Shown here: in pieces, positions 44,173-61,477 of the stretch
Position numbering within the stretch: position 1 is the stretch's first letter
How the letters are laid out: each line of letters starts with the position of its first letter
NCBI GenBank assembly: GCA_963798465.1
Contig: CAWCTC010000001.1
Coordinates: 528,465 to 592,464 of the forward strand
Direction of reading: 5' to 3'
Source: an uncultured bacterium
GTDB taxonomy: Bacteria; Patescibacteriota; Minisyncoccia; Phycocordibacterales; GWA1-40-21
DNA length: 64,000 bases
Program-made: the position numbers and the translations under genes
The notes under the pieces: generated by a model
Database searches by the model: none
What the model was told of the DNA's origin: nothing
Seen by the model: only the letters and a program-made list of their open reading frames with translations

Positions 44173-47100
44173 TTATTTTGACATATTTCCTGTTGGAAGA
44201 TTTGTCGGAGCGCTTGGCGTTTTCGGACCACTCATCGGCGCTTTTGGAATATTTGGAGTCTTATTATTTTTTCTGTAGAAGAATATCAAACCTATCATAG
44301 CTATTAAGACAATTACTATCAAAGCTACCATCGGCTTGTTTGGAATATTTGAGAAACCTTCTGCAACGGCTGCGAACAATCCTGCATTATTAGTTGAAGT
44401 TGCAACTGATGATGTAGAATTTGTCGATGTCGCCAATGAAACTTGTTCATTGTTGCTTGTTGTAGCAGAAGAATTGAATTCTCCTACTCCTGCTGGAATC
44501 GTTATTCCTGTGTCTGGAGTTCCGGAAATTGCTTCAGATGTTCCTGTTGTATTTGCAATAGTTGTGGTTGATGCAACTGGTGCTGTTGAAACTATCGGAG
44601 TAACTGCATTTACGATAACTGTTCTTGTCGCAGATGAAGTGTTTCCGGCTTTATCAGATACTGAGTAAACTACTGAATATGTTCCTGGAACATTCATATT
44701 GATTGAACTTACAGCATTTATATTAGATGTAATATTTCCATCAACATTATCATTTGCTGTCGCTCCCGCATCTACATATGAATCGCCGACATTTATATTC
44801 GCTGGATTTGCTCCGAGAATTGTAATAACTGGCGCAACAATATCTTCTGAAGATGGTGTTGTATTTGTAAATGTAGGTGTTGGAATAACTCCTGATGCTG
44901 TTGAACCTCCGTTGACGGGATTAACTACTGGTGCTGCGACAACATTTACTGTTCTTATAGCTGTTGCAACATTTTCTGCTGCATCGCTTGAAGTGTAAGT
45001 TATTGTATACGTAGCAACTACGGTTGTATCAACCGTTCCTGAAGTTGTTACTGTTGTTGAGGTTGCATCAAACGCATCATAAGCTGTTGCGCCTGCATCT
45101 GTGTATAGATTTCCAACTGTAACATTTACTGGGTTTGAACCAAGAATCGTGATTACCGGTGGAACTGTATCTTCTGTAACAACATTATTTACTGTAACTG
45201 CATAATTTGCTGTGAATGATCCAACTGTTACCGTCAAAACTTCATTTGGATTTGCAACTGAAGAATCAAATCCTGAAATGTTTGAATCACTGATATCATT
45301 AATTGTTGAAGTTGAATTATCTGAATATGTTCCTGTAACTATCATTCCTGTGATATCAACCGCTGAATCACCAACTGTGTAAACTGTTTTGGTTGGCAGA
45401 GTTGTGATTGCGATTGATTTTAATGTTGGAGCTGGAATTGAACCTGAACTTACAGAAATCGTGTAGGTTGCTGTTTTTCCACTAACATTAATTGTAAGAG
45501 TTTCGCTTGAAGTTGCAGCCGAAGAATCAAATCCTGAAATGTTTGAATCACTGATATCATTAATTGTTGAAGTTGAATTATCTGAATATGTTCCTGTAAC
45601 TATCATTCCTGTGATATCAACCGCTGAATCACCAACTGTGTAAACTGTTTTGGTTGGCAGAGTTGTGATTGCGATGCTTGATAGTGTTGGAGCTGGAATT
45701 GGGTTTGAATTAACTGTAACTGTTACTGTAGCTGATATTGTTGTTGATCCAGCTGTTCCTGTAATAACAGTTGTTCCTGTTGCAGAAGCTGTAAACAAAC
45801 CGCTTGCATCTATATTACCAACTGAAGTATCTGAGCTAGACCAAGTTACTGAAGCATTTATTGGATTACCAAATTGATCAGAAGTTGAAGCTGTGAATTG
45901 TGTAGTTGAACCAACTGACAATGTTAATGGTGAAGCTGAAATAGTAATTGATGATACGACTGGAGTTGGATCTGAAAAATCTGAAACTGTAACCGTTACT
46001 GTAGCTGATATTGTTGTTGATCCAGCTGTTCCTGTAATAACAGTTGTTCCTGTTGCAGAAGCTGTAAACAAACCAGTTGAATCTATATTACCAACTGAAG
46101 TATCTGAACTAGACCAAGTTACTGCTGCAGAAATTGGATTATTATTTTGATCCAAAGTTATTGCTGTGAATTGTGTTGTTGAACCGACTGACAATGTTAA
46201 TGGTGAAGCTGAAATACTAATTGATGATACGACTGGAGTTGGAACACTTCCATTAATCACAACCGTATAAGTTGCTGTTTTTCCGCTGACTGTAATTGTC
46301 AAAACTTCATTTGGGTTTGCAACTGAAGAATTAAATCCAGAAATGTTTGAATCACTGATATCATTAATTGTTGAAGTTGAATTATCTGAATATGTTCCTG
46401 TAACTATCATTCCTGTGATATCAACCGCTGAATCACCAACTGTGTAAACTGTTTTGGTTGGCAGAGTTGTGATTGCGATTGATTTTAATGTTGGAGCTGG
46501 AATTGAACCTGAACTTACAGAAATCGTGTAGGTTGCTGTTTTTCCACTAACATTAATTGTAAGAGTTTCGCTTGAAGTTGCAGCCGAAGAATCAAATCCT
46601 GAAATGTTTGAATCACTGATATCATTAATTGTTGAAGTTGAATTATCTGAATATGTTCCTGTAACTACCAATCCTGTTATATCAAGTGAATCACCAACTG
46701 TGTAAACTGTTTTTGTTGCTGGTGAGGTGATTGCGATTGATTGCAATGTTGGTGCTGGAGGAATGGCTGCAAAATTTGCAGTGACTGTAATATCTCCGGC
46801 TACTGCTAGATCAGTTCTTGTTGCTGTAAGAACTCCGTCGCTCCAATTTGAGAATTGGAATCCAAAATTTGGAAATGCTGTTACTGATGTTCCATTTGCA
46901 CCAGAGGCAACAACTTGAGTTGAAGATCCTGTTATAGAACCGTTACCATCAGTTGTGTAAGTAAGTGTAAATGAAGCTGGAGTTCCAATTGAACTTATTT
47001 CTGTTGGAACTGTAATCGTTGTAGTTGTTCCATTTATTGTAATAGTACCGCTATCAATCATGCCGTTCAAAATTACTGCATTAGTTGTTGTTGCATTTAC

Positions 47101-50100
47101 AAGAACTGTTCCTGTAATTGTTGAACCTGAATCAACTACGTTTGTAAGTGTTGAACTTGCAACTGTTGAGCCCGTAAGATTTGAATTCGTTGAAGTTGAA
47201 TCTGATATGACAACATTATTTAATACTGAATTTACAAGATCACTGTTTGTTGAAGTTGAATTTGTAAGTTGTGAATTATCAAGTGTTGAGAGAGTTACAG
47301 AACTTGATGCAACATTTGAACCATTGCTAATAGTTGAAGTTGCGATAGTGCTCAATGTTATTGTTGAAGCATCTATCGTTGAACCAGAGACAGTTGAAGT
47401 CGCAACATAAGAATGATTTGAAACTGTTGTGTAGTAAATATTTGATGCATAAATTTGTGAGTTTGTACTTGTTGAATGAATAAACTTATACAAAGTTAAT
47501 GGATCAATTGTTGAATATGCAATATAACAATCTGTTGCAAAATAATTTTCTACATCAGAATTTAATATAGTACATCTTGCAATGTCATCATTTGATAAAG
47601 TTGAGTTTGTAGAAACAACTTGATCAAGGTTTGTATCATCAACGGTTGTGTTTGTAACTGTTGAATTATTTACATTCCAGAATGTTGAAAGTGTTGAGTT
47701 TGTGATTGTTGTTGTTCCTGTTGTTGTTGCAATTGGAGCAAGCAAAGATTCTGCAAGTGATGGTGAATACAAGCTGTAGAAGATTCCTCCCATAGTTGAA
47801 TTCGTTATCATAACTTGTGAATCAGAAACTATGAATGGTCCATAACTTGTAGTTGTTGAAATATTTCCAGCATTATCTATTGCTGCAACATGGAACCAAA
47901 GGGTGCCAAAACCAGAATCAGTAGTTGTTGTGGCAGTTGTTGTTGAAACTCCAACTGTTCCTGTAACTATTTGAGTTGCGTTTGAATTATCCCAAAGGTA
48001 TTCATATCCGGCCAATCCAGATTCTGAATCTATTGAATTCGTCCATGAAATATTTGCTGAAGCGATTATCGTACCTGTTGCACTTGCATTTGTAATGACA
48101 GGTGTTGTTGGTGCGGTCGTATCAGGAATTACTACATTTGAAACAATAACTGTTCTTGTCGCTGTTGCAACATTTCCTGCTGCATCGCTTGAAGTGTAAG
48201 TAATTGTATATGAACCGATAGTATTTACATTAACTGTTCCAGTTGCTGTAACTGCTGTCGATGTTCCATCGTATGCATCGAACGCTGTTGCGCCTGCATC
48301 AATGTAAAAATCACCGACAAATATATTAGTTGGATTTGCTCCAAGAATTGTTATTACTGGCGCAATCGTATCAGGAATAATTACATTTGAAACTGTAACA
48401 GTTGTTGAAGCTGAAAATGCTCCAGCTGTTCCAGTTATTGTAGTTGTTCCGGCAGAAAGTCCGATGAACAATCCGCTTGCATCTATCATACCGACAGATG
48501 AGTTTGAACTAATCCAAGTTGTTGTAGCTGGGAATGGATTTCCAAATTGATCTTTTGTTGTTGAAGTAAATGTTGTTGTTGCTCCAACTAATATATTTGG
48601 ATTTAATGGTGCAATGCTGATTGAAGCAAGTGCTGGTGGAATAACTGCATTGTTTACACTTATCGTATAAGTTGCAGTTGATGTTCCAACTGTGATTGTC
48701 AAAACTTCATTTGGGTTTGCAACTAAAGAATTGAATCCTGAAATGTTTGAAACATTTATTGGTTCTGTTGAAGTTGAACCGTCAGAATATGTTCCTGTGA
48801 CAACAAGTCCAGTGATATCAAGTGCGTCGCCGACTGTGTAAACTGTTTTGTTTGCTGGAGTCGTGATTGCAATTGATTGCAATGTTGGAGTTGAAGTTGC
48901 AGCAGATACTGTTACAAGAGTTGTAATCGGCATGAGTGAACCTGCTGATGCAGTTATCTCAGTTGTTCCAATTGAACTTGCTGTAAATATTCCGTTCGCA
49001 TCAATTGTTCCGACAGCATTATTTGTGTTTGACCAAGTTGTGGTCGTTGCAAATGGCTGACCAAATTGATCCAAAGTTGTTGAGACAAAAGTTATTTGTT
49101 CTCCAACTGTAACTGATGGATTTAGCGGTGAAATACTCATTGATGTAAGTACTGCTGGAACAGCGCTGACTACAACTTCTCTTGAAATTGTAGAAACATT
49201 TCCGGATAAATCTGAAGAAATGTAATTTACCGTATATATACCGACATTATTGGTATTAACAGTTCCAAATATGGTAACTGGTCTTACTCCGTCAACCAAG
49301 TCGGTTGAAGAAGCTCCCTGTTCTACATATGTATTTCCTACGGATAGATCAAGGACAGCTGGTCCTATCAAGGACATTGCTGGTCCTGTTGTGTCCTTTA
49401 TAACAACCAGAGACGTAGCGGTTGCAACATTTCCTGAAAGATCTGTTGCTGTCCAAATAACTGTTGAAGTTCCAAGTCCGAATCCTGCTGGATTATAGGT
49501 AATAATTGGGCTTGTACTTGAGTTATCTGTTGCTGTAGCCTGTACTAATACTGGCGTTGTTGTTGTTCCTGTTGCTTCAAATACTTGAGTAGCTGGAACT
49601 GAAATGACAGGAGCTATTGTATCTACAACATTTACTATTCTTGTAGCTGTTGCAACATTTCCTGCTAGATCTACTGAAGTATAATCTACTGCATATGTTC
49701 CCAAAACTGAAGTATTTACTGAACTTGATGCTGTAAATGTAAGTGGAACTCCTGAATTATCAGTAACACTGACACCTGCATCTGTATAAAGCGTATTTAT
49801 TTGAACATTGGCGGGATTTGATCCAAGTATTGTTATAACTGGAGCAATCTTATCAATATTTGAAATTGTAATTGTCCTTGATGAGAAGTTTCCTGCTACA
49901 TCCGTTGCTGTGAACGTAACTGTTCCGTTGTTTGAGAAATCAGCTGTTGATGTTGCACCTGAATTTATTATTGAAGCTATTGTAGAAGTTCCTACAATAT
50001 TTCCTTCATTTGTAGTTGCAGTAACTATGACATCTTGATTTGTTGATGAAGTTGCATATGGAAGCACTGTAATTATTGGTGCGACTTTATCAATGTTTGA

Positions 50101-51270
50101 AATTGTAATTGTCCTTGATGAGAAGTTTCCTGCTGCATCTGTAGCTGTGAACGTAACTGTTCCGTTGTTTGAGAAATCAGCTGTTGATGTTGCACCATTG
50201 TTTGCAATTGAAGCAATAGTAGAAACACCTACAATATTTCCTTCATTTGTAGTTGCAGTAACTATGACATCTTGATTTGTTGATGAAGTTGCATATGGAA
50301 GTACTGTAATTATTGGCGCAACTTTATCAATATTTGAAATTGTAATTGTTTTTGAAGAAACATTTCCTGCTGCATCTGTAGCTGTAAATGTGACTGTGCC
50401 ATTATCTGAAAATGTAGCTGATGATGTTGCTCCTGAAGTTACTATGCTAGCTGATGATGAAGATGCAATTATTGTTCCTTCATTTGTAACTGCTGTAACT
50501 GTAACATTTTGATTTGTTGATGAAGTTGCATATGGAAGAATTGTAATGACTGGGGCTGTAAGATCTGCTCCGAAAGAAACAATTATAATACCATTTCCTC
50601 CGATTGCTCCGGCATCACCCAAATTTCCATTTGAGTTCAACCATCCGCTTCCTGCTCCACCACCGGCACCTCTTACTCCAGCTGTTGGAGCTGTGTACGA
50701 AGTAGCACTTCCTGTGCTTCCCTGACCTGAGATTCCAATGGCAGTTGTTCCACCATTTCCTCCGTAGGTTCTTGATCCGAGATTGCTTGCACCATTGGTT
50801 CCGTTTGTTCCACCGATACCACCGGCAAAACCACCGACACCGTTTCCAATGCCAGCTGTTGCACCTTGTCCGCCGAATCCTCCGTTAGCAACAACAGAAG
50901 ATCCGAAAGATGTTGATCCTCCGTTTCCTCCGTTTCCTGCTGCAACAGTTAAAGATCCAGCTGTACCTGCAGTACCTGCTGTTCCAATTGTGTAAGGAAT
51001 TATTTGTCCTGGAGTAACAGGAATAGTTGCTATCTTAACAGCTCCTGCTCCTCCTCCGCCACCACCGTATGTGTAGGCTCCGCCCGCTCCGCCTCCTCCG
51101 GCACCGATTGTTTCTACCGTAACGCTAGTTACACCAGCTGGTACGGTAAAATTTCCGCTTTTCAAAAGAGTTGTCGTAGCTGAATAATCAGCAAACGCAA
51201 CTGATCCGAAAGACAGAACGCCAAGGAAGACGACGATGAGGGCGCTTATTGTTCTAGTAATATTTTTCAT
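44173..51270 (-). CDS. Giant (2365 aa) cell-surface protein: signal peptide, glycine-rich N-terminal domain, many Ig-like repeats, C-terminal TM anchor
   Basis: Signal peptide MKNITRTISALIVVFLGVLSFGSVAFA. Residues ~50-230 are rich in GGxGG runs. Repeated modules include APVITILG.NP..V..G..Y.DAGA (HYR/DUF5011-like), ..SSDTSVGNID.TGLFTA.ATGTT.ITGT (Big_2-like) and LQSIAIT..KTVYTVGD.LDITG..VTGTYSD. The C-terminus has a TM helix, ALIVIVLIAMIGLIFFY, and a short basic tail. Confidence 0.9.
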   Translation of the reverse strand: MKNITRTISALIVVFLGVLSFGSVAFADYSATTTLLKSGNFTVPAGVTSVTVETIGAGGGGAGGAYTYGGGGGGAGAVKIATIPVTPGQIIPYTIGTAGTAGTAGSLTVAAGNGGNGGSTSFGSSVVANGGFGGQGATAGIGNGVGGFAGGIGGTNGTNGASNLGSRTYGGNGGTTAIGISGQGSTGSATSYTAPTAGVRGAGGGAGSGWLNSNGNLGDAGAIGGNGIIIVSFGADLTAPVITILPYATSSTNQNVTVTAVTNEGTIIASSSSASIVTSGATSSATFSDNGTVTFTATDAAGNVSSKTITISNIDKVAPIITVLPYATSSTNQDVIVTATTNEGNIVGVSTIASIANNGATSTADFSNNGTVTFTATDAAGNFSSRTITISNIDKVAPIITVLPYATSSTNQDVIVTATTNEGNIVGTSTIASIINSGATSTADFSNNGTVTFTATDVAGNFSSRTITISNIDKIAPVITILGSNPANVQINTLYTDAGVSVTDNSGVPLTFTASSSVNTSVLGTYAVDYTSVDLAGNVATATRIVNVVDTIAPVISVPATQVFEATGTTTTPVLVQATATDNSSTSPIITYNPAGFGLGTSTVIWTATDLSGNVATATSLVVIKDTTGPAMSLIGPAVLDLSVGNTYVEQGASSTDLVDGVRPVTIFGTVNTNNVGIYTVNYISSDLSGNVSTISREVVVSAVPAVLTSMSISPLNPSVTVGEQITFVSTTLDQFGQPFATTTTWSNTNNAVGTIDANGIFTASSIGTTEITASAGSLMPITTLVTVSAATSTPTLQSIAITTPANKTVYTVGDALDITGLVVTGTYSDGSTSTEPINVSNISGFNSLVANPNEVLTITVGTSTATYTISVNNAVIPPALASISIAPLNPNILVGATTTFTSTTKDQFGNPFPATTTWISSNSSVGMIDASGLFIGLSAGTTTITGTAGAFSASTTVTVSNVIIPDTIAPVITILGANPTNIFVGDFYIDAGATAFDAYDGTSTAVTATGTVNVNTIGSYTITYTSSDAAGNVATATRTVIVSNVVIPDTTAPTTPVITNASATGTIIASANISWTNSIDSESGLAGYEYLWDNSNATQIVTGTVGVSTTTATTTTDSGFGTLWFHVAAIDNAGNISTTTSYGPFIVSDSQVMITNSTMGGIFYSLYSPSLAESLLAPIATTTGTTTITNSTLSTFWNVNNSTVTNTTVDDTNLDQVVSTNSTLSNDDIARCTILNSDVENYFATDCYIAYSTIDPLTLYKFIHSTSTNSQIYASNIYYTTVSNHSYVATSTVSGSTIDASTITLSTIATSTISNGSNVASSSVTLSTLDNSQLTNSTSTNSDLVNSVLNNVVISDSTSTNSNLTGSTVASSTLTNVVDSGSTITGTVLVNATTTNAVILNGMIDSGTITINGTTTTITVPTEISSIGTPASFTLTYTTDGNGSITGSSTQVVASGANGTSVTAFPNFGFQFSNWSDGVLTATRTDLAVAGDITVTANFAAIPPAPTLQSIAITSPATKTVYTVGDSLDITGLVVTGTYSDNSTSTINDISDSNISGFDSSAATSSETLTINVSGKTATYTISVSSGSIPAPTLKSIAITTLPTKTVYTVGDSAVDITGMIVTGTYSDNSTSTINDISDSNISGFNSSVANPNEVLTITVSGKTATYTVVINGSVPTPVVSSISISASPLTLSVGSTTQFTAITLDQNNNPISAAVTWSSSDTSVGNIDSTGLFTASATGTTVITGTAGSTTISATVTVTVSDFSDPTPVVSSITISASPLTLSVGSTTQFTASTSDQFGNPINASVTWSSSDTSVGNIDASGLFTASATGTTVITGTAGSTTISATVTVTVNSNPIPAPTLSSIAITTLPTKTVYTVGDSAVDITGMIVTGTYSDNSTSTINDISDSNISGFDSSAATSSETLTINVSGKTATYTISVSSGSIPAPTLKSIAITTLPTKTVYTVGDSAVDITGMIVTGTYSDNSTSTINDISDSNISGFDSSVANPNEVLTVTVGSFTANYAVTVNNVVTEDTVPPVITILGSNPVNVTVGNLYTDAGATAYDAFDATSTTVTTSGTVDTTVVATYTITYTSSDAAENVATAIRTVNVVAAPVVNPVNGGSTASGVIPTPTFTNTTPSSEDIVAPVITILGANPANINVGDSYVDAGATANDNVDGNITSNINAVSSINMNVPGTYSVVYSVSDKAGNTSSATRTVIVNAVTPIVSTAPVASTTTIANTTGTSEAISGTPDTGITIPAGVGEFNSSATTSNNEQVSLATSTNSTSSVATSTNNAGLFAAVAEGFSNIPNKPMVALIVIVLIAMIGLIFFYRKNNKTPNIPKAPMSGPKTPSAPTNLPTGNMSK
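45266..46710 (-). repeat. Near-identical intragenic DNA repeats (four ~260-bp units plus a ~250-bp pair) within the giant gene
   Basis: The string ..AATCCTGAAATGTTTGAATCACTGATATCATTAATTGTTGAAGTTGAATTATCTGAATATGTTCCTGTAAC.. recurs starting near 45266, 45527, 46333 and 46590. The blocks 45700-45890 and 45960-46140 are also near-identical. Confidence 0.85.
49850..50560 (-). repeat. Three tandem 237-bp (79-codon) repeats within the giant gene
   Basis: Unit starts TTATCAAT(A/G)TTTGAAATTGTAATTGT lie at 49850, 50087 and 50324. They encode DKVAPIITVLPYATSSTNQDVIVTATTNEGNIVG..TFTATDAAGN.SS.TITISNI. Confidence 0.9.
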
Positions 51271-51799
51271 AATAATTAAGATTTAAATTAAAAACTTTTT
51301 ATAAGCAAACTAAAACCGATTAATAATTGAATTAAACTAAACAAAATTTAAGATTTTAAATGACTTAGCCGTGATGATAACGGACACTTGTCATAAACTG
51401 AAAAACTAACCTGTATTTATCTTTGATTTTCAATCAAACTATTTCACAAAAACCGAATAATTTTTCGCACAAACTTATCGCACATTTAGAACTGTCGCAC
51501 AAAGAGATTTTCACACAAAACTAACTGAATTTTTAACAAAAGAGCGTTTATATTTTTCGCGGGTATTCCGCAAAAAAGAACTGTTTACAAACGAGAGCTT
51601 ATCACACACAACATTTATTGTCAATAGTCAAATGCAAGATTTTTTCATTATGTATAAAAACGATTTTTTATAATCAGCTTGATTATAAAGGACATTATTG
51701 ATTTTGTCCTTTACAAAATCAATGTCCTTTACAAAAAGCCCTGCTTATAGCGGTATCCGATGAAAAATATTAAACATTGAATTGTAACGTTTAAACAGC

Positions 51800-51827
51800 T
51801 TGACAATCCATTCCTTTATGCTACAAT
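51800..51827 (+). promoter_or_regulatory. Candidate sigma70-type promoter for the plus-strand island
   Basis: TTGACA (51800-05), a 16-nt spacer, then TACAAT (51822-27). It is followed within ~20 nt by the hairpin AATCCC..GGGATT + T7. Confidence 0.55.
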
Positions 51828-52025
51828 TTCCGCAGAGTTTAATCCCCTTCCAACGAGGGATTATTTTTTTGAAAACTATTTCTTCCTAAAGAAAGATAAA
51901 ACAATTATTGAAAATAATTTCTTCTTAAAAAGAAGAATGCAACAATATAAAGAGATTTTGTTTTATTTTAAAAAGAAAGAAAAAAGAAACTAAAAATTAA
52001 ATCCACGTGAGTGGAAGGAGGAAAC

Positions 52026-52919
52026 ATGAAAAATTTTTTGAAGTTGTTTGTAATGCTTTTAACGGTTGTTTTTTTTGCGGCAATCGTTTATGCCGTAAAC
52101 ACAGCACCGACTGCTCCCATTGCGGTCACAACATCAGCTGATGTTGTGAAGATCGACACTCACAAAAAAGTGAACGGGTCGATCGTCGGCGACGACGGTT
52201 CAATGGTCGGCAAGATCGAATTGAACTTGCCCCAGACGAAGTTTTACAAAATCGAGGTGCCGGCGCCAATAATAAACGTCACCATACCAAATGATGACGC
52301 GACTCCGGCTCCATCTGCACCAACAGTTTCGACAACATCAACACAGGTTGTTGAAACTGAAACGTCGGTAAATTCTGCAAGAAAAAAACTAATCCAAATA
52401 TGTGCAGGATTAGTAAGTTCTACAGAAGTGCTTGCGACAGGAAATGGATTCAATATTTCAGAGAACTCCGAGGGTGACTGGGCGGAAGTTTCACTGCAGG
52501 GAAATATCAATGAATACTGCGGTGTAAGAATCACCGAGAATCTCGGTGACAAAACAAGAACGGCGTCTTACATGGGTTCATCTTTCGGAACAGAACATGT
52601 TCAAAGAACTCCGAAGTTGGAGTTCTTGTTCTATCCGATGCCTGAACTTAACTGGCAACCGTTCGTCGGCATCGGAGTGGAATGGGTTAGCATAACCAAT
52701 CCACTATCAGCCGGAGGAGTCGTACTGGAAGATAATTTTTCCGGTATAGCTCCTGGAATAACGGTCGGGGCAGAGCTTCCCATCTTAGATGATGAGCTCT
52801 ACGGAAAAATTGAAGGGTCATACTACCCTTCAAAAATTACCACCGATATTCCAGGTGGTGTTTCCGGCTCAACCGAGAGCAACGCAACTGTTTCGTTCGG
52901 GATCGGATGGAGAATATAA
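52026..52919 (+). CDS. Secreted protein with C-terminal beta-barrel-OMP-like strands (ATG 52026; the ORF track starts at GTG 52011)
   Basis: RBS GGAAGGAGG, signal peptide MKNFLKLFVMLLTVVFFAAIVYA, and alternating-hydrophobic C-terminal strands (WQPFVGIGVEWVSI, GIAPGITVGAELPI, ATVSFGIGWRI-stop). GC is visibly higher than in the neighbours. Confidence 0.6.
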   Translation: MKNFLKLFVMLLTVVFFAAIVYAVNTAPTAPIAVTTSADVVKIDTHKKVNGSIVGDDGSMVGKIELNLPQTKFYKIEVPAPIINVTIPNDDATPAPSAPTVSTTSTQVVETETSVNSARKKLIQICAGLVSSTEVLATGNGFNISENSEGDWAEVSLQGNINEYCGVRITENLGDKTRTASYMGSSFGTEHVQRTPKLEFLFYPMPELNWQPFVGIGVEWVSITNPLSAGGVVLEDNFSGIAPGITVGAELPILDDELYGKIEGSYYPSKITTDIPGGVSGSTESNATVSFGIGWRI

Positions 52920-52936
52920 AAACCATCCGATGTAAT

Positions 52937-52974
52937 AAAAAGGCCAGCACACTTAAAAAAGTGTCCGGCCTTTT
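52937..52974 (+). terminator. Rho-independent terminator
   Basis: AAAAAGGCCAGCACACTT-AAAAA-AGTGTCCGGCCTTTT. Confidence 0.75.
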
Positions 52975-53048
52975 CTCTTGCTTGACTTATATCTAAAATA
53001 TGGTTTAATTATAAGCAAGAAATTAATACCACTTCACGGGAGGTAAGT

Positions 53049-53243
53049 ATGAAAAAATTTATTTTGTTCTTTGTTTTAATTTTTATCTTATTTTCGAGCA
53101 CAATTTCTGCTTCTGCAAAAACGTTATACAACGAGATGTTACCACCCGATGTAGCTGACGAGGCAATAATATCGTCAGTAACATTTACTGTCATCGATAT
53201 ACCACATACAATTTCAATTACAGGAACGCCAACCTGCAATTGA
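53049..53243 (+). CDS. Small secreted protein/peptide (64 aa)
   Basis: RBS GGGAGGTAAGT-ATG and signal peptide MKKFILFFVLIFILFSSTISASA. The mature ~41 aa end in ..ITGTPTCN. It has its own terminator. Confidence 0.55.
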   Translation: MKKFILFFVLIFILFSSTISASAKTLYNEMLPPDVADEAIISSVTFTVIDIPHTISITGTPTCN

Positions 53244-53252
53244 AATAAAAAC

Positions 53253-53287
53253 AAAATGGCCACATGCATAGCATGCGGCCATTTTTT
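53253..53287. terminator. Bidirectional terminator between convergent genes
   Basis: AAAATGGCCACATGC-ATA-GCATGCGGCCATTTTTT. Confidence 0.8.
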
Positions 53288-53298
53288 ATTGTTCAATT

Positions 53299-53526
53299 TT
53301 ACTTCATCAATTTCTGCAATTCTCCTTGATGTTTTCTCATCACTTCCATCGAAGCCGCTGTCTTGCTCTTCCCTTCCTTAACTTTCTGTTCGATTTCTTT
53401 CGCTATATTTTCAAAAAATTGCGGATCCTTTTCCACCGCACGCATCATCATTTCCTGCTGTTCTTTTGGAACATTCTTCATTTGCGATTTTATCGCCTGC
53501 TTCATCAAAAAACTTTTTAATCCCAT
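53299..53526 (-). CDS. Small helical lysine/glutamate-rich protein (75 aa), unknown function
   Basis: An ORF directly downstream of the MacB-type permease on the same strand, with no TM segment. Confidence 0.45.
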   Translation of the reverse strand: MGLKSFLMKQAIKSQMKNVPKEQQEMMMRAVEKDPQFFENIAKEIEQKVKEGKSKTAASMEVMRKHQGELQKLMK

Positions 53527-53599: not shown

Positions 53600-54833
53600 T
53601 TATTCATACCTAAGTGCTTCCATCGGACTTTTCTTTGCAGCTTGATTTGCAGGATAAATACCAAAAACCAAACCAACAAGGCTTGCAACCAAAATACCGA
53701 GTAGTGCCGCTTCGTATGGAAAAACAAATTGCCAATTCAAAGCGAGGACTTTTGTCAGAATAATTGAAATAAGATAAGAGAGAGATCCTCCTAAAATAAC
53801 TCCGATGATTCCCCCGGTTCCCGTAAGCATTACAGCTTCAAGTAAAAACTGAACCAAAATATCATGATTGGTCGCCCCGATAGCTTTTCTCAAACCGATT
53901 TCCTTTGTTCTCTCCGTAACAGAAACAAGCATAATATTCATAATTCCGATTCCACCGACAATAAGTGAAATCGCTGCAACTGCCGCAAGAAAAGCTGTAA
54001 GCGCAGTTGTTATTGTACCTAGAGTTGCAGCAACATCAGCAGTAGTCTCAACTGAAAAATCGTCATTTGCCGGATCAGTAATATTATGAGAATTTCTCAG
54101 TGTAATTTTTATGTCATCAACAGTTGATGCGAGATTTGCCTGTGAATCCGCTTCAACAACAATTCTATTGAAATATTTTGTCCCTGTAATATATTGCTGT
54201 GCTGTTGTGTACGGCATAAATACAGCATCATCAAACTCAGAAGAAGAACCTTTTTCCGGCAAAACTCCAATTACTTTAAATGTATTATTTTTAATTCTTA
54301 TTTTTTGACCAATAGCATTATTTCCATCAAATAAGATTCTTCTGCACATTATATCCGATAACAACAACTAAAGACTGGCTTATCACATCATCATTGGTAA
54401 AAAAATAGCCTTGATTTGGATTTATATCAAAAATTTCAGGAATCTGTTCACCGGAACCGAAAACTGCAACTTGGTAAACTAAATTTCCATTAACAGCTGC
54501 ACCCGCGCCAATTACCATCGGCATAATATATTTTGCGTCTGGTACATTTGCCTTCAATTCTAGAGCAGTCAAATCTTTTTCTTTTAGAGAATCATTTAAT
54601 GTCTGTGCTGCTGCAGAAGGACTGAATGAAATTTTTCCTGGGATAACGGTTATGGTGGTAGCACCAAGTCCATTAACTTGACTCAAAATTAGATTTTGTG
54701 CGCCTTGTCCAAGCGACATGACTAATATAATAGAAGTTATTCCAATAACAATTCCAATGATAGTCAAAGCCGAACGTGATTTGTGCGTCATAAGTCCAGT
54801 CACTGCTGTTTGTATGCTGTATTTTAATTTCAT
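53600..54833 (-). pseudogene. MacB/FtsX-type ABC permease, frame broken by one extra base
   Basis: ORFs 54327..54833 (N-terminal TM plus periplasmic MacB_PCD-like domain) and 53600..54367 (FtsX C-terminal 3-TM domain) join as ..VVVIGYNVQKNL|FDGNNAIGQKIRIK.. if one A is removed (CTT[A]TTTGAT). The span is 1234 nt. Confidence 0.85.
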
Positions 54834-54941
54834 CCTGTAAAGAAATTTTAATGTTTTAATAATTTCGACTATTTTGATTAATTGATTCTATATTTATTAC
54901 TTTAAATTTTAGACTACGCTGAATTTCACACGAGACAAGTT

Positions 54942-55662
54942 TTATTTTACAAATTTATCAGCACTAGTTTTTCTTTCCTTAACTTTCTCATCACTTTCTA
55001 TTTGTCCATCAAGCAACCTAATTATTCTTTGGGCATATTCGGCGGTATATGTCTCATGAGTTACAAGAATAATTGTATGTCCCATTTCAGTATTTAGTTT
55101 TTGAATTATTTCGATAACCGCTTGTCCAGATTTTGAATCAAGATTTCCTGTCGGCTCATCCGCAAAAATAACTTCAGGATCATTTACAAGAGCTCGCGCA
55201 ATGGCGACTCTTTGCTTTTCTCCTCCGGAAAGCTGAACCGCCTGATGATGCATGCGACTGGCAAGCCCGACGGAAACAACCGCATCCTCTGCTTTTTTAT
55301 TCCATTCGGATTCTGGAACGCTTGAATAAATAAGCGGAAGTTTTACATTTTCAAGAACCGTTTCGTGTGGCAAAAGATTGAATGATTGAAAAATAAAACC
55401 AATTTTTTCATTTCGCAGTTTTGCAATTTCGATAGGATTAAAAGAACCAATATCTTTTCCCAAAAAATAATAAGTTCCTTCTGTGTGATTATCCAGAAGT
55501 CCAAGAATTTGGAGTAAAGTTGATTTTCCAGAACCGGAAGGACCCATGATTGCCAAAAATTCGCCTTTTTTTATTTCAAGAGATACGCCGCGTAATGCTT
55601 CAGTTTTTGTTCCTTCATTTTCATAAACTTTCCAAAGATTTTTTGTTTCTATCGAGATTCAC
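54942..55662 (-). pseudogene. MacB/LolD-type ABC ATPase, frame broken by one extra base at codon 4
   Basis: GTG 55662 gives MNL, then after removing one G (CTC[G]ATA) IETKNLWKVYENEGTKTEALRGVSLEIKKGEFLAIMGPSGSGKST.., [14 protein letters not shown] and [11 protein letters not shown]. The span is 721 nt. Confidence 0.85.
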
Positions 55663-55666
55663 GTTT

Positions 55667-57244
55667 TTAAATATTTGGTGAAGCAACTATTTGATCGCCC
55701 TCTTTTAATCCGGAGATTATTTGAATATAGCCATCTATTCCGCGCATTCCTGTTTCAACTTGCGTTTGAGTGCTTTTTAGCGGGTTGCTTGGATCTATCA
55801 ATTTTACATATTTATTTATATCTATTGAATAAACTGATCTCGAAGGCACCGCCAAAACACCGTTCGCCTGACCGGTAAGAATATCCAAGTTTGCAGTCAT
55901 GCCGGATTTTATTCTGTTGTCAGATGAAGAGGCAAAATTTAAAGTAACTTTATACGTCGGCACATCTTCTATAATTGTTTCTCCTGGATCAATCTTCACA
56001 ACAGAAGTTGGGAAAAAAGTATCCGAACCATATGCGTCCAATGTCGTTGTTGCAACATCGCCGATTTTAACTTTTGAGATGTCGGCTTCTGGCACATAAG
56101 ACTCGACATCATATTGTCCGTAAGAAATAACTGATATAGCCGGAATACCAGATTGCATCGTTTCGCCAACCTTTGCATTTACATTAGTAATAACTCCGCT
56201 TATTGGAGAAATAATTATTGATTTATCAAAATTCGCCTGTGCTGCGTCAACATTTGCCTGTGCTTGTGCAACCGCTGCTTGTGAAGCTTGAAGTTGATCC
56301 GATGTCGCTCCAGTTTTTATGAGAGTAAGTTGACTATTTGCAACATCAAGTGAAGAAATTGCTGATTGATATTGACTAGATGCCGCGGAAAGATTGCTAA
56401 TTGCAAGATCAACTTCAGCTCTGGCCGTCGAAACAGCAGTTTTCCAAATCGTCAATGTGCTCTGACTTATTGTCACTGGTGTTAAATTATTTATCGCCAA
56501 TGCAAGATTCTTCAAAAAAGTTTGAATGTAAGTCAAATTATCATTTGCTGTTTCAACGGCAGAATTAAGATCGGAATCAGTAGTTAAACTTTCGGAAGAA
56601 GTGCTCCAGGAATTAAGCATAGTTTCAATATCGGTTCTTTCCGCGACAATGTCATTGTTTAATTGGGGATCGGCTTGAAACTGCAAAGTAGGATTTTGAG
56701 TTCTTGGATTTGTAAACATAACATCTGTATAATTCCTGACTGCATCATCGGATTTATTATAGGAATCCTGTATTGAATTTACCAAACTATTCTCAGCATC
56801 AGAAATATCGCTTTCCGCTTTTTCCACTTGTGATTGATTTACAGCGATTTGTTGCGGAGTTGATCCATTTTGAAGAGATGATAAATTGGCCTCGGCTATT
56901 TGAAGACCTGCTTTTGCCTGCTCAACTGCAGCTGACAAATCCGCATTTGAAAGCGATGACAATTCCTCGCCTGCCGATACTTTGTCTCCAACTGCAACGT
57001 AAACATGAGCGACTTCTCCGCTCGATTCAAAAGAAAGATCTAAGTTTGAAAGGGGCACAACATTTCCCGTCTCACTGACTTCTTCTACAATGTCGTGTTT
57101 TTGAACCGTGACAAAATCGGTCGGAGAGTTTTGCTTTCTGCCAAGAATAACAAACAAAACTATTATAATAACAATAGCTATTAATATAGACCAGATTTTA
57201 TGTTTCTGGACAAAATTTTTCAACTTGGAAAATATATTTTTCAT
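55667..57244 (-). CDS. HlyD/MacA-type periplasmic adaptor (membrane fusion) protein
   Basis: 525 aa with an N-terminal TM helix, a biotinyl-lipoyl-like hairpin (VSAGEELSSL), a long alanine/glutamine-rich coiled coil, and beta-barrel C-terminal domains. It is the first gene of the adaptor-ATPase-permease operon. Confidence 0.85.
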   Translation of the reverse strand: MKNIFSKLKNFVQKHKIWSILIAIVIIIVLFVILGRKQNSPTDFVTVQKHDIVEEVSETGNVVPLSNLDLSFESSGEVAHVYVAVGDKVSAGEELSSLSNADLSAAVEQAKAGLQIAEANLSSLQNGSTPQQIAVNQSQVEKAESDISDAENSLVNSIQDSYNKSDDAVRNYTDVMFTNPRTQNPTLQFQADPQLNNDIVAERTDIETMLNSWSTSSESLTTDSDLNSAVETANDNLTYIQTFLKNLALAINNLTPVTISQSTLTIWKTAVSTARAEVDLAISNLSAASSQYQSAISSLDVANSQLTLIKTGATSDQLQASQAAVAQAQANVDAAQANFDKSIIISPISGVITNVNAKVGETMQSGIPAISVISYGQYDVESYVPEADISKVKIGDVATTTLDAYGSDTFFPTSVVKIDPGETIIEDVPTYKVTLNFASSSDNRIKSGMTANLDILTGQANGVLAVPSRSVYSIDINKYVKLIDPSNPLKSTQTQVETGMRGIDGYIQIISGLKEGDQIVASPNI

Positions 57245-57453: not shown

Positions 57454-57525
57454 TCGGAGCGCCGGGATTTGAACCCGGAGTCACATGAACCCGAATCATG
57501 CATGTTACCGTTACACTACGCTCCG
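57454..57525 (-). tRNA. tRNA-Pro (anticodon CGG)
   Basis: Hand-folded cloverleaf: CGGAGCG/CGCTCCG acceptor, GTGT/ACAT D stem, CATGA-TTCGGGT-TCATG anticodon arm, CCGGG-TTCAAAT-CCCGG T arm. CCA is not encoded. Confidence 0.9.
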
Positions 57526-57675
57526 ATATTTTTCTTGTGGTCACAAATAAAATTACTGACGTAATTTTTTCGCGACCTCGGCTCACCATTTTTGCCTTTG
57601 CTTCGCTAAACAAAAATATGGCTGCGCCTTCCACAAGATCATAAAATCTAAAGCAGTTTAGATTTTATGATCTTG
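57526..57675 (-). repeat. Family D element downstream of tRNA-Ala(CGC)
   Basis: A 50-nt hairpin (57630-57679) starts inside the tRNA 3' end (TCCACAAGATCATAAAATCTAAA-loop-TTTAGATTTTATGATCTTGTGGA). Conserved stems follow, then GGTCGCG..GTCA-loop hairpin..TGTGACC, and it ends in CCACAAG, a 7-nt copy of the tRNA 3' end. Confidence 0.7.
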
Positions 57676-57746
57676 TGGACCTAGGCAGAATCGGACTGCC
57701 GTCTCGTCAATGCGAATGACGCGTTCTACCACTGTACTATAGGCCC
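57676..57746 (-). tRNA. tRNA-Ala (anticodon CGC)
   Basis: GGGCCTA/TAGGTCC acceptor with G3:U70, anticodon arm CGTCA-TTCGCAT-TGACG, T arm GGCAG-TCCGATT-CTGCC; 71 nt. Confidence 0.88.
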
Positions 57747-57898
57747 AATTTTATTGTGGTCCCGAATAAATTTCCTGACGGAAATTTTTCTTGACCATGA
57801 CTTGCGGTTTTTGCCTTTCGCTTTGCTCAAACAAAAACATCGCTCCGTCTTCCACATAGTAGATAAAATCTGCAGTAGTGCAGATTTTATCTACTATG
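57747..57898 (-). repeat. Family D element downstream of tRNA-Ala(GGC)
   Basis: A 52-nt perfect hairpin (57851-57902) includes the tRNA 3' end. It is collinear with the 57526-57675 element, and the substitutions are compensatory in two stems (GCG..CGC vs CCA..TGG; TTTCC-GTCA-GGAAA vs ATTAC-GTCA-GTAAT). Confidence 0.7.
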
Positions 57899-57971
57899 TG
57901 GACCACACCGGGATCGAACCGGTCGCCTCTTCCATGCCATGGAAACGCTCTACCAAATGAGCTAGCGGCCC
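57899..57971 (-). tRNA. tRNA-Ala (anticodon GGC)
   Basis: GGGCCGC/GTGGTCC acceptor with G3:U70, anticodon arm TTTCC-ATGGCAT-GGAAG, T arm ACCGG-TTCGATC-CCGGT; 73 nt. Confidence 0.9.
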
Positions 57972-58097
57972 TTTGCGCCAAGTGAGTATATTATAAAAAA
58001 TCATAAAAATCAAAAATAGAATAATAAAAAAAATTATGTTATAAAGTAATCGTGCACGGGCGATTAGCTCAGTTGGTTAGAGCATACGATTCATTCA

Positions 58098-58214
58098 CCC
58101 GAGAAAATTTTTGGACATTTAGCTCAGTTGGTTAGAGCATGCGATTCACATTCGCAAGGTCACAGGTTCGAATCCTGTAATGTCCACACATCATCGTCCA
58201 AAAACTTTAACGGG
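58098..58214 (+). repeat. MITE-like element, family C, copy 4: the same inverted termini, but the interior is tRNA-Val
   Basis: CCCGAGAAAATTTTTGGAC ... GTCCAAAAACTTTAACGGG. The termini can pair over 19 positions with 3 mismatches. Confidence 0.75.
58113..58186 (+). tRNA. tRNA-Val (anticodon CAC), nested inside the interrupted tRNA
   Basis: GGACATT/AATGTCC acceptor, GCTC/GAGC D stem, TGCGA-TTCACAT-TCGCA anticodon arm, ACAGG-TTCGAAT-CCTGT T arm; 74 nt. Confidence 0.9.
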
Positions 58215-58254
58215 CAAGTTCGTAAGGTCACAAGTTCGATTCTTGTATCGCCCA

Positions 58255-58486
58255 CAGACAAAAAACAAGATGAATATGAATACTTGCAATATTCAGCTGT
58301 TTTTGGCTGGGTGATACAAGAATCGAAAGATCGGAAGTAATTTTTTCAGCAGAAAAAATTACTGAGTCGTGGTCGCGAAAAATTTCGAGCAACCTAATTT
58401 TCTTGAGCGAAGCGATTAGAAAATGGGAGTACTCTTGTGGTAGACGGCGAGAAAATTATTTGTGACCGATTCTTGTATCGCCCACA
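58255..58486 (+). repeat. Family D element downstream of the interrupted tRNA, with inverted and direct copies of its 3' end
   Basis: The direct repeat CGATTCTTGTATCGCCCACA occurs at 58237-58256 and 58467-58486. An inverted copy, TGGGTGATACAAGAATCGAA, lies at 58308-58327. GGTCGCG (58368) and TGTGACC (58461) are shared with the 57526 element. The last 75 nt form a tRNA-length 'ghost' starting AAGCGATTAG (the real tRNA starts GGGCGATTAG). Confidence 0.7.
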
Positions 58487-58570
58487 AAAATATAAAAAGT
58501 CCAGTGATTCAAATATGGGCATTAAAAAGGCTTGGAAAAATATATTCTTTATGCTAATCTTTTATCCACT

Positions 58571-58643
58571 GGGCCTGTAGCTCATCTGGTAGAGCACCTC
58601 ATTTGCAATGAGGGGGTAAGCGGTTCGAGTCCGCTCAGGTCCA
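58571..58643 (+). tRNA. tRNA-Ala (anticodon UGC)
   Basis: GGGCCTG/CAGGTCC acceptor with G3:U70, anticodon arm CCTCA-TTTGCAA-TGAGG, T arm AGCGG-TTCGAGT-CCGCT; 73 nt. Confidence 0.92.
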
Positions 58644-61450: not shown

Positions 61451-61477
61451 AAAAACCCGAGCCATACTCGGGTTTTT
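61451..61477. terminator. Bidirectional rho-independent terminator
   Basis: AAAAACCCGAG-CCATA-CTCGGGTTTTT, overlapping the uvrA stop codon. Confidence 0.85.

Follow-up and report, generated by a model that had tools for sequence, protein, structure and literature searches.

An OmpW-like β-barrel protein, possibly a membrane-anchored surface protein, is predicted at a conserved locus of a CPR bacterium

ORF1, a plus-strand gene in a 64-kb stretch of DNA from a CPR bacterium (the window, meaning the whole stretch analysed), encodes a protein whose C-terminal ~175 aa are predicted, by modelling and profile comparison, to form an 8-stranded β-barrel remotely homologous to OmpW/OMP_b-brl proteins. 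We consider it very probable that ORF1 combines an OmpW-like fold and homology with vertical inheritance as opposed to arrival on an island. The reading that best explains the observations as a whole, and to which we would give an even chance, is that ORF1 encodes a surface protein of modular build, exported through Sec and anchored in a membrane by its OmpW-like barrel.

In the curated list of 54 ORFs in the window, 50 lie on the minus strand and four on the plus. ORF1 and its small companion ORF2 occupy exactly the positions listed in Table 1, amid minus-strand genes, as an earlier note on this DNA had described. The note had also credited each gene with a strong GGAGG-type ribosome-binding site and a terminator of its own, and this is borne out by motifs that can be read directly and by the folding energies. 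Relatives carry AGGAGG at the position of ORF2’s GGGAGG. The hairpin behind ORF1 (−17.5 kcal/mol, z = −4.87; 0 of 200 shuffles equally stable) is kept in relatives, and the one shared by ORF2 and the convergent 75-aa gene, which has U-runs on both strands (−19.7 kcal/mol, z = −4.66), is invariant in them. Of the 12 consensus positions, the predicted ORF1 promoter has 11; its two hexamers recur unchanged in the related loci L001, L007 and L011, with one substitution in the spacer. Further upstream, three of the seven TCGCACA copies in the whole 64 kb are packed into 37 bp, in a region conserved among close relatives, and this cluster may be a candidate regulator binding site. A promoter-proximal hairpin (51840-51863) was rejected as an attenuator, since its stability does not exceed that of shuffled sequences (z = −0.94) and L001 lacks it. 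An Rfam search of the locus returned sub-threshold noise only.

Table 1. Positions of the features discussed, numbered within the window; both Shine-Dalgarno motifs, the signal peptide and the spacer were read from the sequence
Feature	Position	Strand	Details
Giant surface protein gene	44173-51270	−	2365 aa; signal peptide and C-terminal TM helix anchor
TCGCACA cluster	51465-51501	+	three copies; regulatory region shared by the giant protein gene and ORF1
Predicted sigma-70-type ORF1 promoter	51800-51827	+	TTGACA, 16 nt, TACAAT; extended −10 TG
ORF1 Shine-Dalgarno	52013-52021	+	GGAAGGAGG; ends 4 nt 5′ of the ATG at 52026
ORF1	52026-52919	+	297 aa, ATG start
Predicted signal peptide (residues 1-23)	52026-52094	+	MKNFLKLFVMLLTVVFFAAIVYA; SPase-I type, without lipobox Cys
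Variable N-terminal module (residues 24-90)	52095-52295	+	two short strands, low model confidence
Pro/Thr/Ser-rich spacer (residues 91-117)	52296-52376	+	DATPAPSAPTVSTTSTQVVETETSVNS; pLDDT <50
Predicted OmpW/OMP_b-brl-like barrel domain (residues ~118-297 and stop)	52377-52919	+	ends ..ATVSFGIGWRI
ORF1 intrinsic terminator	52938-52982	+	hairpin 52938-52974, then U-run UUUUCUCUU
ORF2 Shine-Dalgarno	53038-53043	+	GGGAGG; ends 5 nt 5′ of the ATG
ORF2	53049-53243	+	64 aa
Bidirectional terminator	53253-53285	both	serves ORF2 (+) and the 75-aa gene (−); 15-bp stem
75-aa protein gene	53299-53526	−	helical by composition, without signal peptide
MacB-type ABC efflux operon	53600-57244	−	MacB permease, ABC ATPase, 525-aa HlyD-like adaptor (Pfam)

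An exhaustive search for relatives of ORF1 yielded six distant orthologs (P0004-P0009) and nine family members in all, a very small family that collapses to 7 clusters at 50% identity in a set of 1.84 billion representatives. A scan of GTDB genomes with ORF1 found no relative, and the collection apparently lacks close ones. The parts of the protein differ in how well they are kept across the family. The structural model has a helix at residues 2-24, the signal-peptide segment is an allelic variant in P0003, and the mature protein would have ~270 residues. At the position of the variable N-terminal module, P0004, P0005 and P0009 carry a PF16403 Ig-like module; a degenerate Ig-like domain in ORF1 itself was considered and rejected, the hhalign probability against that module being 0.1%. 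Spacers rich in Pro, Ser and Thr recur in P0004, P0005, P0006 and P0009, with long charged or polar linkers in their place in P0007 and P0008.

ORF1 itself has no match in Pfam or NCBIfam at E ≤ 10, and therefore all OMP assignments are transitive or structural. PF13505 (OMP_b-brl) is matched by four of the nine family members (best 2.5e-8) but not by ORF1, which leaves the link between the two transitive only, and PF03922 (OmpW) is matched weakly by one of the nine (P0007, 6.2e-6). The HMM search proposed in the earlier note thus failed for the protein itself and succeeded for some of its orthologs. The alignment behind the OMP assignments comprises only 8-9 sequences. A profile of the barrel domain retrieved OmpW (2.6e-5), OprG (1.5e-4) and OmpA (8.5e-3) from the PDB by hmmsearch, and it also matches an Ideonella OmpW/AlkL protein. 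In hhalign, OmpW/AlkL aligns over 116 columns, the PYVGxG strand among them, with 92% probability (E 6e-7). Designed WD40 repeats (‘WRAP-T’), the top PDB sequence matches, were set aside as artefacts because their scores add up from repeat matches of ~4 bits each, no stretch being significant.

Structural modelling points the same way. The AF2 model of the barrel domain (pLDDT 79.6, pTM 0.74) retrieved OprG (2x27) at 3e-9 and OmpW (2f1t, 2f1v) at TM 0.69-0.70 in Foldseek, and the best 50 PDB matches are outer-membrane barrels without exception; lipocalin, avidin and FABP folds are absent from this set. Every predicted strand is amphipathic: one face is hydrophobic (family mean KD +1.4 to +2.7), the other rich in Gly, Ser, Thr and Glu. 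The earlier note had recognized the barrel pattern in the C-terminal ~110 aa; the barrel-like character holds up in the ortholog Pfam matches, the hhalign result and the fold comparison (TM 0.69), but the domain spans ~175-180 residues (~118-297). The C-terminus is Phe in five of the nine members, Ile in ORF1, Lys in P0002 and P0003, and Pro in P0009. SFGIGWRI fits the polar-x-G-x-x-aromatic-x-hydrophobic pattern but closes with Ile, where a β-signal has an aromatic residue, usually Phe, and the Ile, Lys and Pro termini of ORF1, its closest alleles and one ortholog mean that the canonical β-signal is not strictly kept.

The likeness to OmpW/AlkL/OprG (PF03922) lies in a domain of ~175-190 residues with a barrel predicted to be 8-stranded, in the ‘PYVGxGxxW/Y’ strand motif and in homology at the profile level. 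Typical members of that family are antiparallel barrels of ~180-200 residues that reside in the outer membrane of diderms and have a hydrophobic channel with a lateral opening. ORF1 nevertheless falls below the family HMM threshold without registering and is only ~14-17% identical to OmpW structures; it adds an N-terminal module and spacer, together ~95 residues, that OmpW lacks, its family can end in Ile or Lys where OmpW has Phe, and it belongs to a CPR bacterium, regarded as having no outer membrane. OMP_b-brl proteins (PF13505; OmpA/OmpX/Opa-like, MBB clan) share the alternation of hydrophobic and small or polar strand faces, and structure searches with the ORF1 domain also retrieve the OmpA, OmpX, NspA and Ail barrels. 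ORF1 differs in the absence of a direct match and in its taxonomic setting. We know of no described combination of an N-terminal PF16403 Ig-like module with a C-terminal PF13505 barrel, as found in P0004 and P0005.

The position of the gene is better conserved than its sequence. The slot has a fixed order, namely a giant Ig-like surface protein, the barrel, a small gene, the 75-aa gene and the MacB-ABC-MFP genes, and orthologs only 23-29% identical to ORF1 fill it. Upstream of the barrel gene, a large protein is encoded on the minus strand in the window, in L001-L008, L011, L013, L176, L177 and L179, and on the contigs of P0006 and P0009; the 75-aa gene, whose product has no Pfam match, is the constant downstream neighbour in every family member with context. 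Across same-slot genomes the neighbouring genes are 51-90% identical while the barrel is 23-25%; in L176, for example, identity to the window is 90% for the 75-aa protein, 54% for MacB and 23% for the barrel. A search of MacB-anchored loci (80 from GTDB and 80 from metagenomes) with the barrel-domain HMM revealed no barrel next to the MacB genes of more distant CPR bacteria.

Among close relatives, ORF1 has a dS of 0.36-0.40 compared with 0.06-0.12 in its neighbours, and a dN/dS of 0.17-0.18. Difference-free blocks of 90 codons adjoin blocks with 19 synonymous differences, and directly after the ORF1 promoter there is an allelic switch, with the downstream sequence replaced in L001. ORF1 is a recombining mosaic under purifying selection. 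We suggest that the locus may swap segments between divergent alleles, much as classical surface-antigen genes do.

How such a protein might work can be outlined from its architecture. After Sec export the barrel would enter a lipid bilayer and serve there as membrane anchor, and we regard its being embedded in a membrane as somewhat probable; we infer that insertion would take place without BAM. The bilayer would most likely be the cell’s own membrane, with the barrel taking the place of the C-terminal TM-helix type of anchor of the giant neighbour, although anchoring in that particular membrane is a tentative proposal that we put slightly below even. The spacer would then cross the wall, and the variable N-terminal module could be displayed at the symbiont-host interface. 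The giant neighbour offers an analogy. Its Pfam domains are five Bact_surface_Ig-like (PF16403), four Big_2, two Big_3 and Gly_rich_2; its translation also has an S/T-rich region and, after the C-terminal hydrophobic helix, a basic tail. Its gene is divergent from ORF1 and the pairing with the barrel gene is conserved. The order of N-terminal module, P/T/S spacer and C-terminal anchor in ORF1 parallels this neighbour and would be consistent with a monoderm-style architecture.

Gram-positive-style surface proteins likewise combine an N-terminal functional domain, a wall-spanning Pro/Thr/Ser spacer and a C-terminal anchor, but the proposed anchor of ORF1 is a β-barrel and not an α-helix or an LPXTG sortase signal; we know of no described precedent for a β-barrel in that role. 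The order of signal peptide, passenger-like variable or Ig-like module, linker and C-terminal β-barrel also recalls type Va autotransporters. Their barrels have 12 strands and ~250-300 residues, with an α-helical linker through the pore, whereas the ORF1 domain has ~175 aa, its best fold matches are 8-stranded and no helix precedes it in the model. The NalP, Hbp and AIDA autotransporter barrels compare with the ORF1 domain at TM 0.24-0.44.

It is unlikely, in our view, that ORF1 is instead a soluble, secreted barrel with no anchoring role, OmpW-shaped with a hydrophobic interior, that transports host-derived lipids or similar hydrophobic molecules. Strand amphipathicity alone cannot separate a hydrophobic exterior from a hydrophobic interior, and ORF1 has no terminal aromatic residue. 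It is established that OmpW, AlkL and OprG conduct small hydrophobic molecules, and CPR bacteria in general depend on their hosts for lipids, both of which would suit a carrier. Against a carrier stand the structural neighbours, which are membrane barrels throughout the best 50, with none of the soluble lipocalin, avidin or FABP folds, together with the profile homology to membrane OMP families and a hydrophobic register that matches OmpW. The polar face, rich in Gly, Ser and Thr and poor in Lys, Asp and Arg, is also a better fit to a narrow lumen than to a solvent-exposed surface.

The case for a barrel anchor in the cell’s own membrane depends on the kind of envelope the host has. To our knowledge, OmpA/OmpW-class barrels are confined to the outer membranes of diderms and organelles and depend on Omp85-type insertases, and OMP-type barrels are not known from cytoplasmic membranes. 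The earlier note had called an OMP-like barrel unexpected on condition of a CPR-type host, and sequence comparison identifies the host as a CPR (Minisyncoccota/Patescibacteria) bacterium. Proteins named ‘Ca. Paceibacterota bacterium’, which corresponds to the phylum Minisyncoccota, share 85-90% identity with the DnaK of the window, and ‘Minisyncoccia bacterium’ shares 80%; MacB is nearest to Saccharibacteria, Patescibacteria and Parcubacteria MAGs, and the source contig, at 732,962 bp, is in keeping with the small genomes of CPR bacteria. The group is treated as monoderm in the literature (10.1101/2021.05.31.446380; PMC12102498; PMC6146748), within a monoderm clade that lost the systems for outer-membrane tethering (10.1101/2021.05.31.446380; PMC12102498), so that an OMP-like barrel is indeed unexpected there, as the note had argued. 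We found no literature report of OMP-type barrels in CPR bacteria. Neither the window nor ~70 kb of related loci yielded BamA/Omp85 or periplasmic chaperones.

A genuine OmpW-class barrel of a monoderm CPR episymbiont could also fold, without BAM, into the membrane of the host organism and not into its own, which we likewise judge to be unlikely. In that case the symbiont would supply its own anchor in the form of the barrel, whose variable N-terminal module would remain in the cleft, gripped by the co-regulated giant Ig-like adhesin; the barrel might instead conduct lipids or further hydrophobic nutrients out of the host. If this were true, ORF1 would be the first OMP-type barrel to work outside a diderm or organelle outer membrane, and the barrel might be left over from a diderm past, as has been proposed for the CPR/Chloroflexota clade. 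More generally, ORF1 is a concrete candidate for surface-protein anchoring or host contact in CPR bacteria. A barrel that is positionally conserved, under purifying selection and joined to variable surface modules would bear on how these bacteria build their surface and attach to hosts, on the possibility of BAM-free function in small barrels and on the diderm-to-monoderm transition in Terrabacteria.

An unrecognized outer membrane in this CPR clade, with a BamA/Omp85-type insertase and with ORF1 as an ordinary, N-terminally extended OMP, is improbable. The C-terminal Phe typical of BAM substrates, kept in five of the nine members, would fit such an envelope, as would the outer-membrane-associated protein homologs that occur sporadically in CPR MAGs, where the envelope was left ‘to be determined’ (PMC6146748). 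Pfam searches of 51 window ORFs and the Pfam annotations of related loci, however, contained no Omp85, POTRA, LptD, OEP/TolC or secretin, that is, no outer-membrane biogenesis family; the 2365-aa adhesin-like neighbour is anchored in monoderm style by a C-terminal TM helix, and the literature places CPR bacteria in a monoderm clade without outer-membrane tethering (10.1101/2021.05.31.446380; PMC12102498).

The earlier note had offered horizontal acquisition as an alternative, and it had observed correctly that ORF1 is richer in G+C than its neighbours. Its GC is 0.452, more than in any other ORF of the window, where the remaining 53 average 0.357 ± 0.039 (z = 2.4). A value as high occurs in only 0.55% of segments of ORF1’s size, and GC3 (0.44 against 0.29, z = 2.3) is near-highest in the window. 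High-expression codon bias is not supported as the source of the GC3 excess, the DnaK, RpoA and ribosomal-protein genes having low GC3 (~0.27-0.32). The composition and the minority strand, together with the fact that the nearest recognizable families of ORF1 are typical of diderms, might suggest that ORF1 and ORF2 were recently imported from a diderm donor, but we regard this as very unlikely. The excess in GC and GC3 recurs in every ortholog, in genomes of 35%, 38%, 43% and 47% GC; it is therefore no scar of recent transfer. The slot is filled in every related genome with context: between conserved flanks, and against at least five divergent genome backgrounds, it is taken by orthologs that are 23-88% identical. 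The borders of the locus carry neither an integrase or transposase gene nor a tRNA, and there is no close homolog outside the clade among the 1.84 billion representatives. Recent acquisition of ORF1 as an island is contradicted by these results, and the best explanation is that this envelope-protein gene is specific to the lineage and has been passed down vertically; the ancestor of the clade may possibly have received it by an ancient transfer.

The neighbouring pump could invite a functional link, and MacB-type pumps export peptides. That ORF1 is a TolC-like outer channel or accessory of the MacB-ABC-HlyD pump, or ORF2 its peptide substrate, is nonetheless highly improbable, even with the barrel beside the MacB/ABC/MFP operon in most genomes: L174 retains the barrel in its slot with the pump operon absent, MacB and the ATPase are frameshifted in this assembly while ORF1 is intact, the operons converge with strong terminators between them, a domain of ~175 aa with 8-stranded best matches is far too small for a TolC-like duct, ORF2 is absent from L179 and L174, and the phyletic patterns are independent. 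The frameshifts are single-base insertions at ~54335 and ~55653 of the assembled sequence relative to L001, L007 and L011, which split MacB and remove the N-terminus of the ABC ATPase. A split MnmA and UvrA fragments occur as well, and such breaks would reflect either assembly indels or real pseudogenes. The MacB operon is a syntenic neighbour and not a demonstrated partner of ORF1.

ORF2, missing from two of the related loci as noted above, is an optional gene and not a conserved partner of ORF1. Its apparent homology to a 76-aa gene of L176 was discounted, the resemblance being limited to the signal peptides, and searches of Pfam and NCBIfam at E ≤ 10 gave noise only and no family. An antisense ORF of 95 aa (53009-53296) overlaps it and is disfavoured as a real gene by the codon-position pattern: substitutions relative to L001 fall 11/2/13 over the three codon positions in the plus frame and 2/11/13 in the antisense ORF. 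Indels relative to L001 are multiples of 3. Both observations favour the plus-strand gene of the earlier note, and ORF2 is best read as a small, probably Sec-exported plus-strand peptide; cleavage is predicted to follow ISASA and would leave an acidic mature form of ~41 aa ending in ITGTPTCN.

The C-terminal domain of ORF1, the barrel gene, is very probably OmpW-like in both fold and homology. Scanned alone, the ORF1 protein matched no Pfam or NCBIfam model, and only three close relatives were found among 5.8 billion clustered proteins. Exhaustive searching with phmmer, covering 1.84 billion representatives, added six distant relatives that are 27-31% identical across the C-terminal ~180 residues. 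The same layout recurs in all nine family proteins: behind the signal peptide come a variable N-terminal part, a linker that is Pro/Thr/Ser-rich in most (ORF1 included) and a conserved C-terminal domain. When each was scanned singly, four of the nine matched Pfam OMP_b-brl (best 2.5e-8), one matched OmpW, and three carried an N-terminal Bact_surface_Ig-like domain. A profile of the C-terminal domain retrieved OmpW (2.6e-5), OprG (1.5e-4) and OmpA (8.5e-3) from the PDB, and also an Ideonella OmpW/AlkL protein; 'WRAP-T' entries ranked above OmpW in the PDB search were rejected as repeat artefacts without a significant stretch. The family alignments are shallow (8-9 sequences) and the OMP link of ORF1 itself is transitive; hhalign against an OmpW/AlkL alignment gave 92% probability (E 6e-7) over 116 columns that include the PYVGxG strand. 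The OMP-like barrel proposed in the earlier note is thus upheld by profiles and modelling, but not by a direct family match for ORF1.

The AlphaFold2 model built from the domain alignment is all-beta (mean pLDDT 79.6, pTM 0.74). Foldseek placed it close to OprG (3e-9) and OmpW (TM 0.69-0.70), and all 50 of the PDB matches listed were outer-membrane barrels; the full-length model agrees, and a viral structure library yielded phage OmpW and other OMP barrels too. Both in ORF1 and family-wide, each predicted strand alternates between a hydrophobic face and one rich in Gly/Ser/Thr/Glu. The barrel-type terminal signature that had been read from the sequence is borne out in part: SFGIGWRI fits the beta-signal pattern, but its last residue is Ile. 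Elsewhere in the family this residue is Phe (five orthologs), Lys (the closest alleles, P0002 and P0003) or Pro (the distant ortholog P0009).

The barrel is rather likely to be embedded in a bilayer, because its homologs are membrane barrels that share its hydrophobic register, because its Gly-rich polar face is typical of a narrow lumen, and because its structural neighbours are all membrane barrels among the matches listed. It would then act as the membrane anchor of the ORF1 protein, with the variable N-module displayed and tethered to it through a wall-spanning P/T/S spacer. This would mirror the arrangement of the adjacent giant surface protein, which combines a Gly-rich N-terminal domain with numerous Ig-like repeats (PF16403, Big_2, Big_3) and long near-identical internal repeats, but whose anchor is a C-terminal TM helix. 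Three barrel orthologs likewise carry a domain of the PF16403 family N-terminally. The N-terminal module of ORF1 (residues 24-90) is unrelated to the Ig-like module of the orthologs P0004, P0005 and P0009 (hhalign 0.1%), which indicates that the N-terminal part is interchangeable. Anchoring in the cell's own membrane is a tentative reading, and insertion into a host's membrane an unlikely one. It is equally unlikely that this domain, with membrane barrels as its structural neighbours, is a soluble barrel for a hydrophobic ligand.

The organism is of CPR type, as had been supposed. The window DnaK is 85-90% identical to 'Candidatus Paceibacterota bacterium' proteins (NCBI names) and 80% to one 'Minisyncoccia bacterium' protein; NCBI taxonomy assigns 'Candidatus Paceibacterota' to phylum Minisyncoccota, i.e. 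CPR/Patescibacteria. A sister strain has an intact MacB, whose nearest matches among GTDB species representatives are MAGs of Saccharibacteria, Patescibacteria and Parcubacteria. The window comes from a contig of 732,962 bp. Peptidoglycan genes in the window comprise MurG, FtsW, MraY, a D-Ala-D-Ala carboxypeptidase and Ddl, and a pilin-like protein is also encoded. A cryptic outer membrane with BAM in this CPR clade is improbable: no outer-membrane biogenesis family was represented among the window genes scanned or in the annotations of related loci, and CPR are regarded as monoderm in passages of two sources (10.1101/2021.05.31.446380; PMC12102498). A third source reports that CPR MAGs contain OM-associated homologs, OmpA for example, and leaves the envelope question open there (PMC6146748).

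The two plus-strand genes lie exactly where the earlier note put them, in a window where the minus strand holds 50 of the 54 ORFs of the curated set, and each has the strong RBS and the terminator ascribed to it. The hairpins with U-runs 3' of ORF1 (-17.5 kcal/mol, z = -4.9) and ORF2 (-19.7 kcal/mol, z = -4.7) far exceed shuffled sequences in stability, the latter being bidirectional and common to ORF2 and the convergent 75-aa gene. Both predicted promoter hexamers of ORF1 are identical in close relatives, the spacer having one substitution, and the ORF1 protein is identical in an independent assembly (L011).

Features of the barrel locus and of the wider window
Feature	Position	Strand	Details
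ORF1	52026-52919	+	297 aa; an upstream GTG start would give 5 extra codons
ORF2	53049-53243	+	64 aa
ORF1 RBS		+	GGAAGGAGG, 4 nt upstream of ATG
ORF2 RBS		+	GGGAGG, 5 nt upstream of ATG
Predicted ORF1 promoter	51800-51827		TTGACA, 16 nt, TG-n-TACAAT; near-consensus, 11/12 matches
Giant surface-protein gene/ORF1 intergenic region	51271-52025		755 bp, unusually long; L001 7293-8000
TCGCACA repeats in this region	51465-51501		three, clustered
Giant surface protein	44173-51270	-	2365 aa
75-aa gene	53299-53526	-	Lys/Glu/Gln-rich, no signal peptide
MacB (split)	53600-54367, 54327-54833		two ORFs
MnmA (fragmented)	38032-39157
UvrA (fragmented)	61476-63970
tRNA genes	57454-58643	three -, two +	five, clustered between efflux operon and ddl
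Large ORFs	23561-25396, 31049-32431, 32468-33655	-	611, 460 and 395 aa; no Pfam match at E ≤ 0.01

ORF1 is indeed richer in G+C than its neighbours (0.452 vs 0.357 ± 0.039, z = 2.4, the highest among all window ORFs; GC3 0.44 vs 0.29), and a horizontally acquired island had been raised as an alternative. Recent HGT is nevertheless very improbable, since every family member with context occupies the same slot and the GC excess recurs in all five loci compared. With the orthologs at L179 10001-11011, L176 3756-4751, L174 637-1668 and L001 8001-8891, the barrel gene tops its locus in GC every time, overall locus GC ranging from 0.35 to 0.47, and its GC3 is the highest in L179 (GC 0.503 and GC3 0.617 vs about 0.43 and 0.42) and among the highest in the rest. 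The deviating composition thus belongs to the gene itself and does not betray recent import. Ordinary expression-linked bias was rejected as the source of the GC3 excess, the DnaK, RpoA and ribosomal-protein genes being low in GC3; a recombination hotspot with GC-biased gene conversion would be one candidate explanation.

The slot typically has the giant surface protein (-) followed by the barrel (+), a small secreted-peptide gene that is optional (+), the conserved gene of 75-76 aa (-) and the genes for MacB, the ABC ATPase and the HlyD-like adaptor (-); Ddl, UvrC or YchF lie farther out. Despite this proximity, a role for ORF1/ORF2 as a MacAB accessory is scarcely credible, as the barrel keeps its place in L174, which has no pump operon, beside a 60-aa homolog of the 75-aa gene, Ddl and UvrC. 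Barrel identity is 23-25% vs 51-90% for the neighbours in L176, L179 and L174, and 88% vs 98-100% in the close strains L001 and L007. The 75-aa gene always adjoins the locus; its product had no Pfam match, is strikingly conserved (90% identity in L176, where MacB has 54%) and carries from one source the doubtful name 'Tfp pilus assembly protein PilF'. Its GC3 is also high (0.47), with dS 0.22 and dN 0 against L001.

Between close strains (window 52026-52919 vs L001 8001-8891 and L007 3498-4397), ORF1 has a dN/dS of 0.17-0.18, indicating a genuine, constrained coding sequence, and a dS of 0.36-0.40, 3-6 times that of its neighbours (0.06-0.12 in adaptor and ATPase). It is a mosaic in which difference-free blocks of up to 90 codons adjoin 17-19 synonymous differences per 30 codons: against L001, codons 154-243 show zero differences and codons 124-153 show 19 synonymous ones, and against L007 another divergent block spans codons 211-270. 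Upstream, the first ~570 nt of the regulatory region are about 95% conserved, and in L001 the leader and signal-peptide sequences are unrelated, the switch falling directly behind the predicted promoter. The blocky divergence and this leader switch point to recombination among divergent alleles, as in surface-antigen loci.

Some gene callers place an antisense ORF at the ORF2 site. The plus frame has the RBS, a canonical signal peptide and 11/2/13 substitutions at codon positions 1/2/3 against L001 (2/11/13 in the antisense frame), which favours the secreted 64-aa peptide described earlier. Indels inside ORF2 are multiples of three, save for a C-terminal frameshift in L009 (1161-1376), where the homolog, with a 10-nt deletion, has 71 aa and an unrelated C-terminal sequence that extends into the terminator, in keeping with a weakly constrained peptide. 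No relatives of the mature peptide (~41 aa, acidic) were detected. The small gene at this position in L176 resembles ORF2 only in the signal peptide, and L179 and L174 have none there, which makes ORF2 a passenger of the locus that is optional and changes fast.

At 53600-55660 of the window, MacB is split and the first ~35 codons of the ABC ATPase are missing, each defect arising from one single-base insertion (about 54335 and 55653) relative to L001, L007 and L011, which have both genes intact (410 and 239 aa). Either the efflux-pump genes are real pseudogenes here or the assembly contains indels. MnmA (tRNA 2-thiouridylase) forms two overlapping ORFs and UvrA three pieces (one UvrA_inter and two ABC_tran fragments). 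Together, the four breaks suggest a systematic assembly indel problem or ongoing gene decay; as single-base indels break all four genes, the assembly may hold errors. The three large ORFs in the table are candidate lineage-specific proteins.
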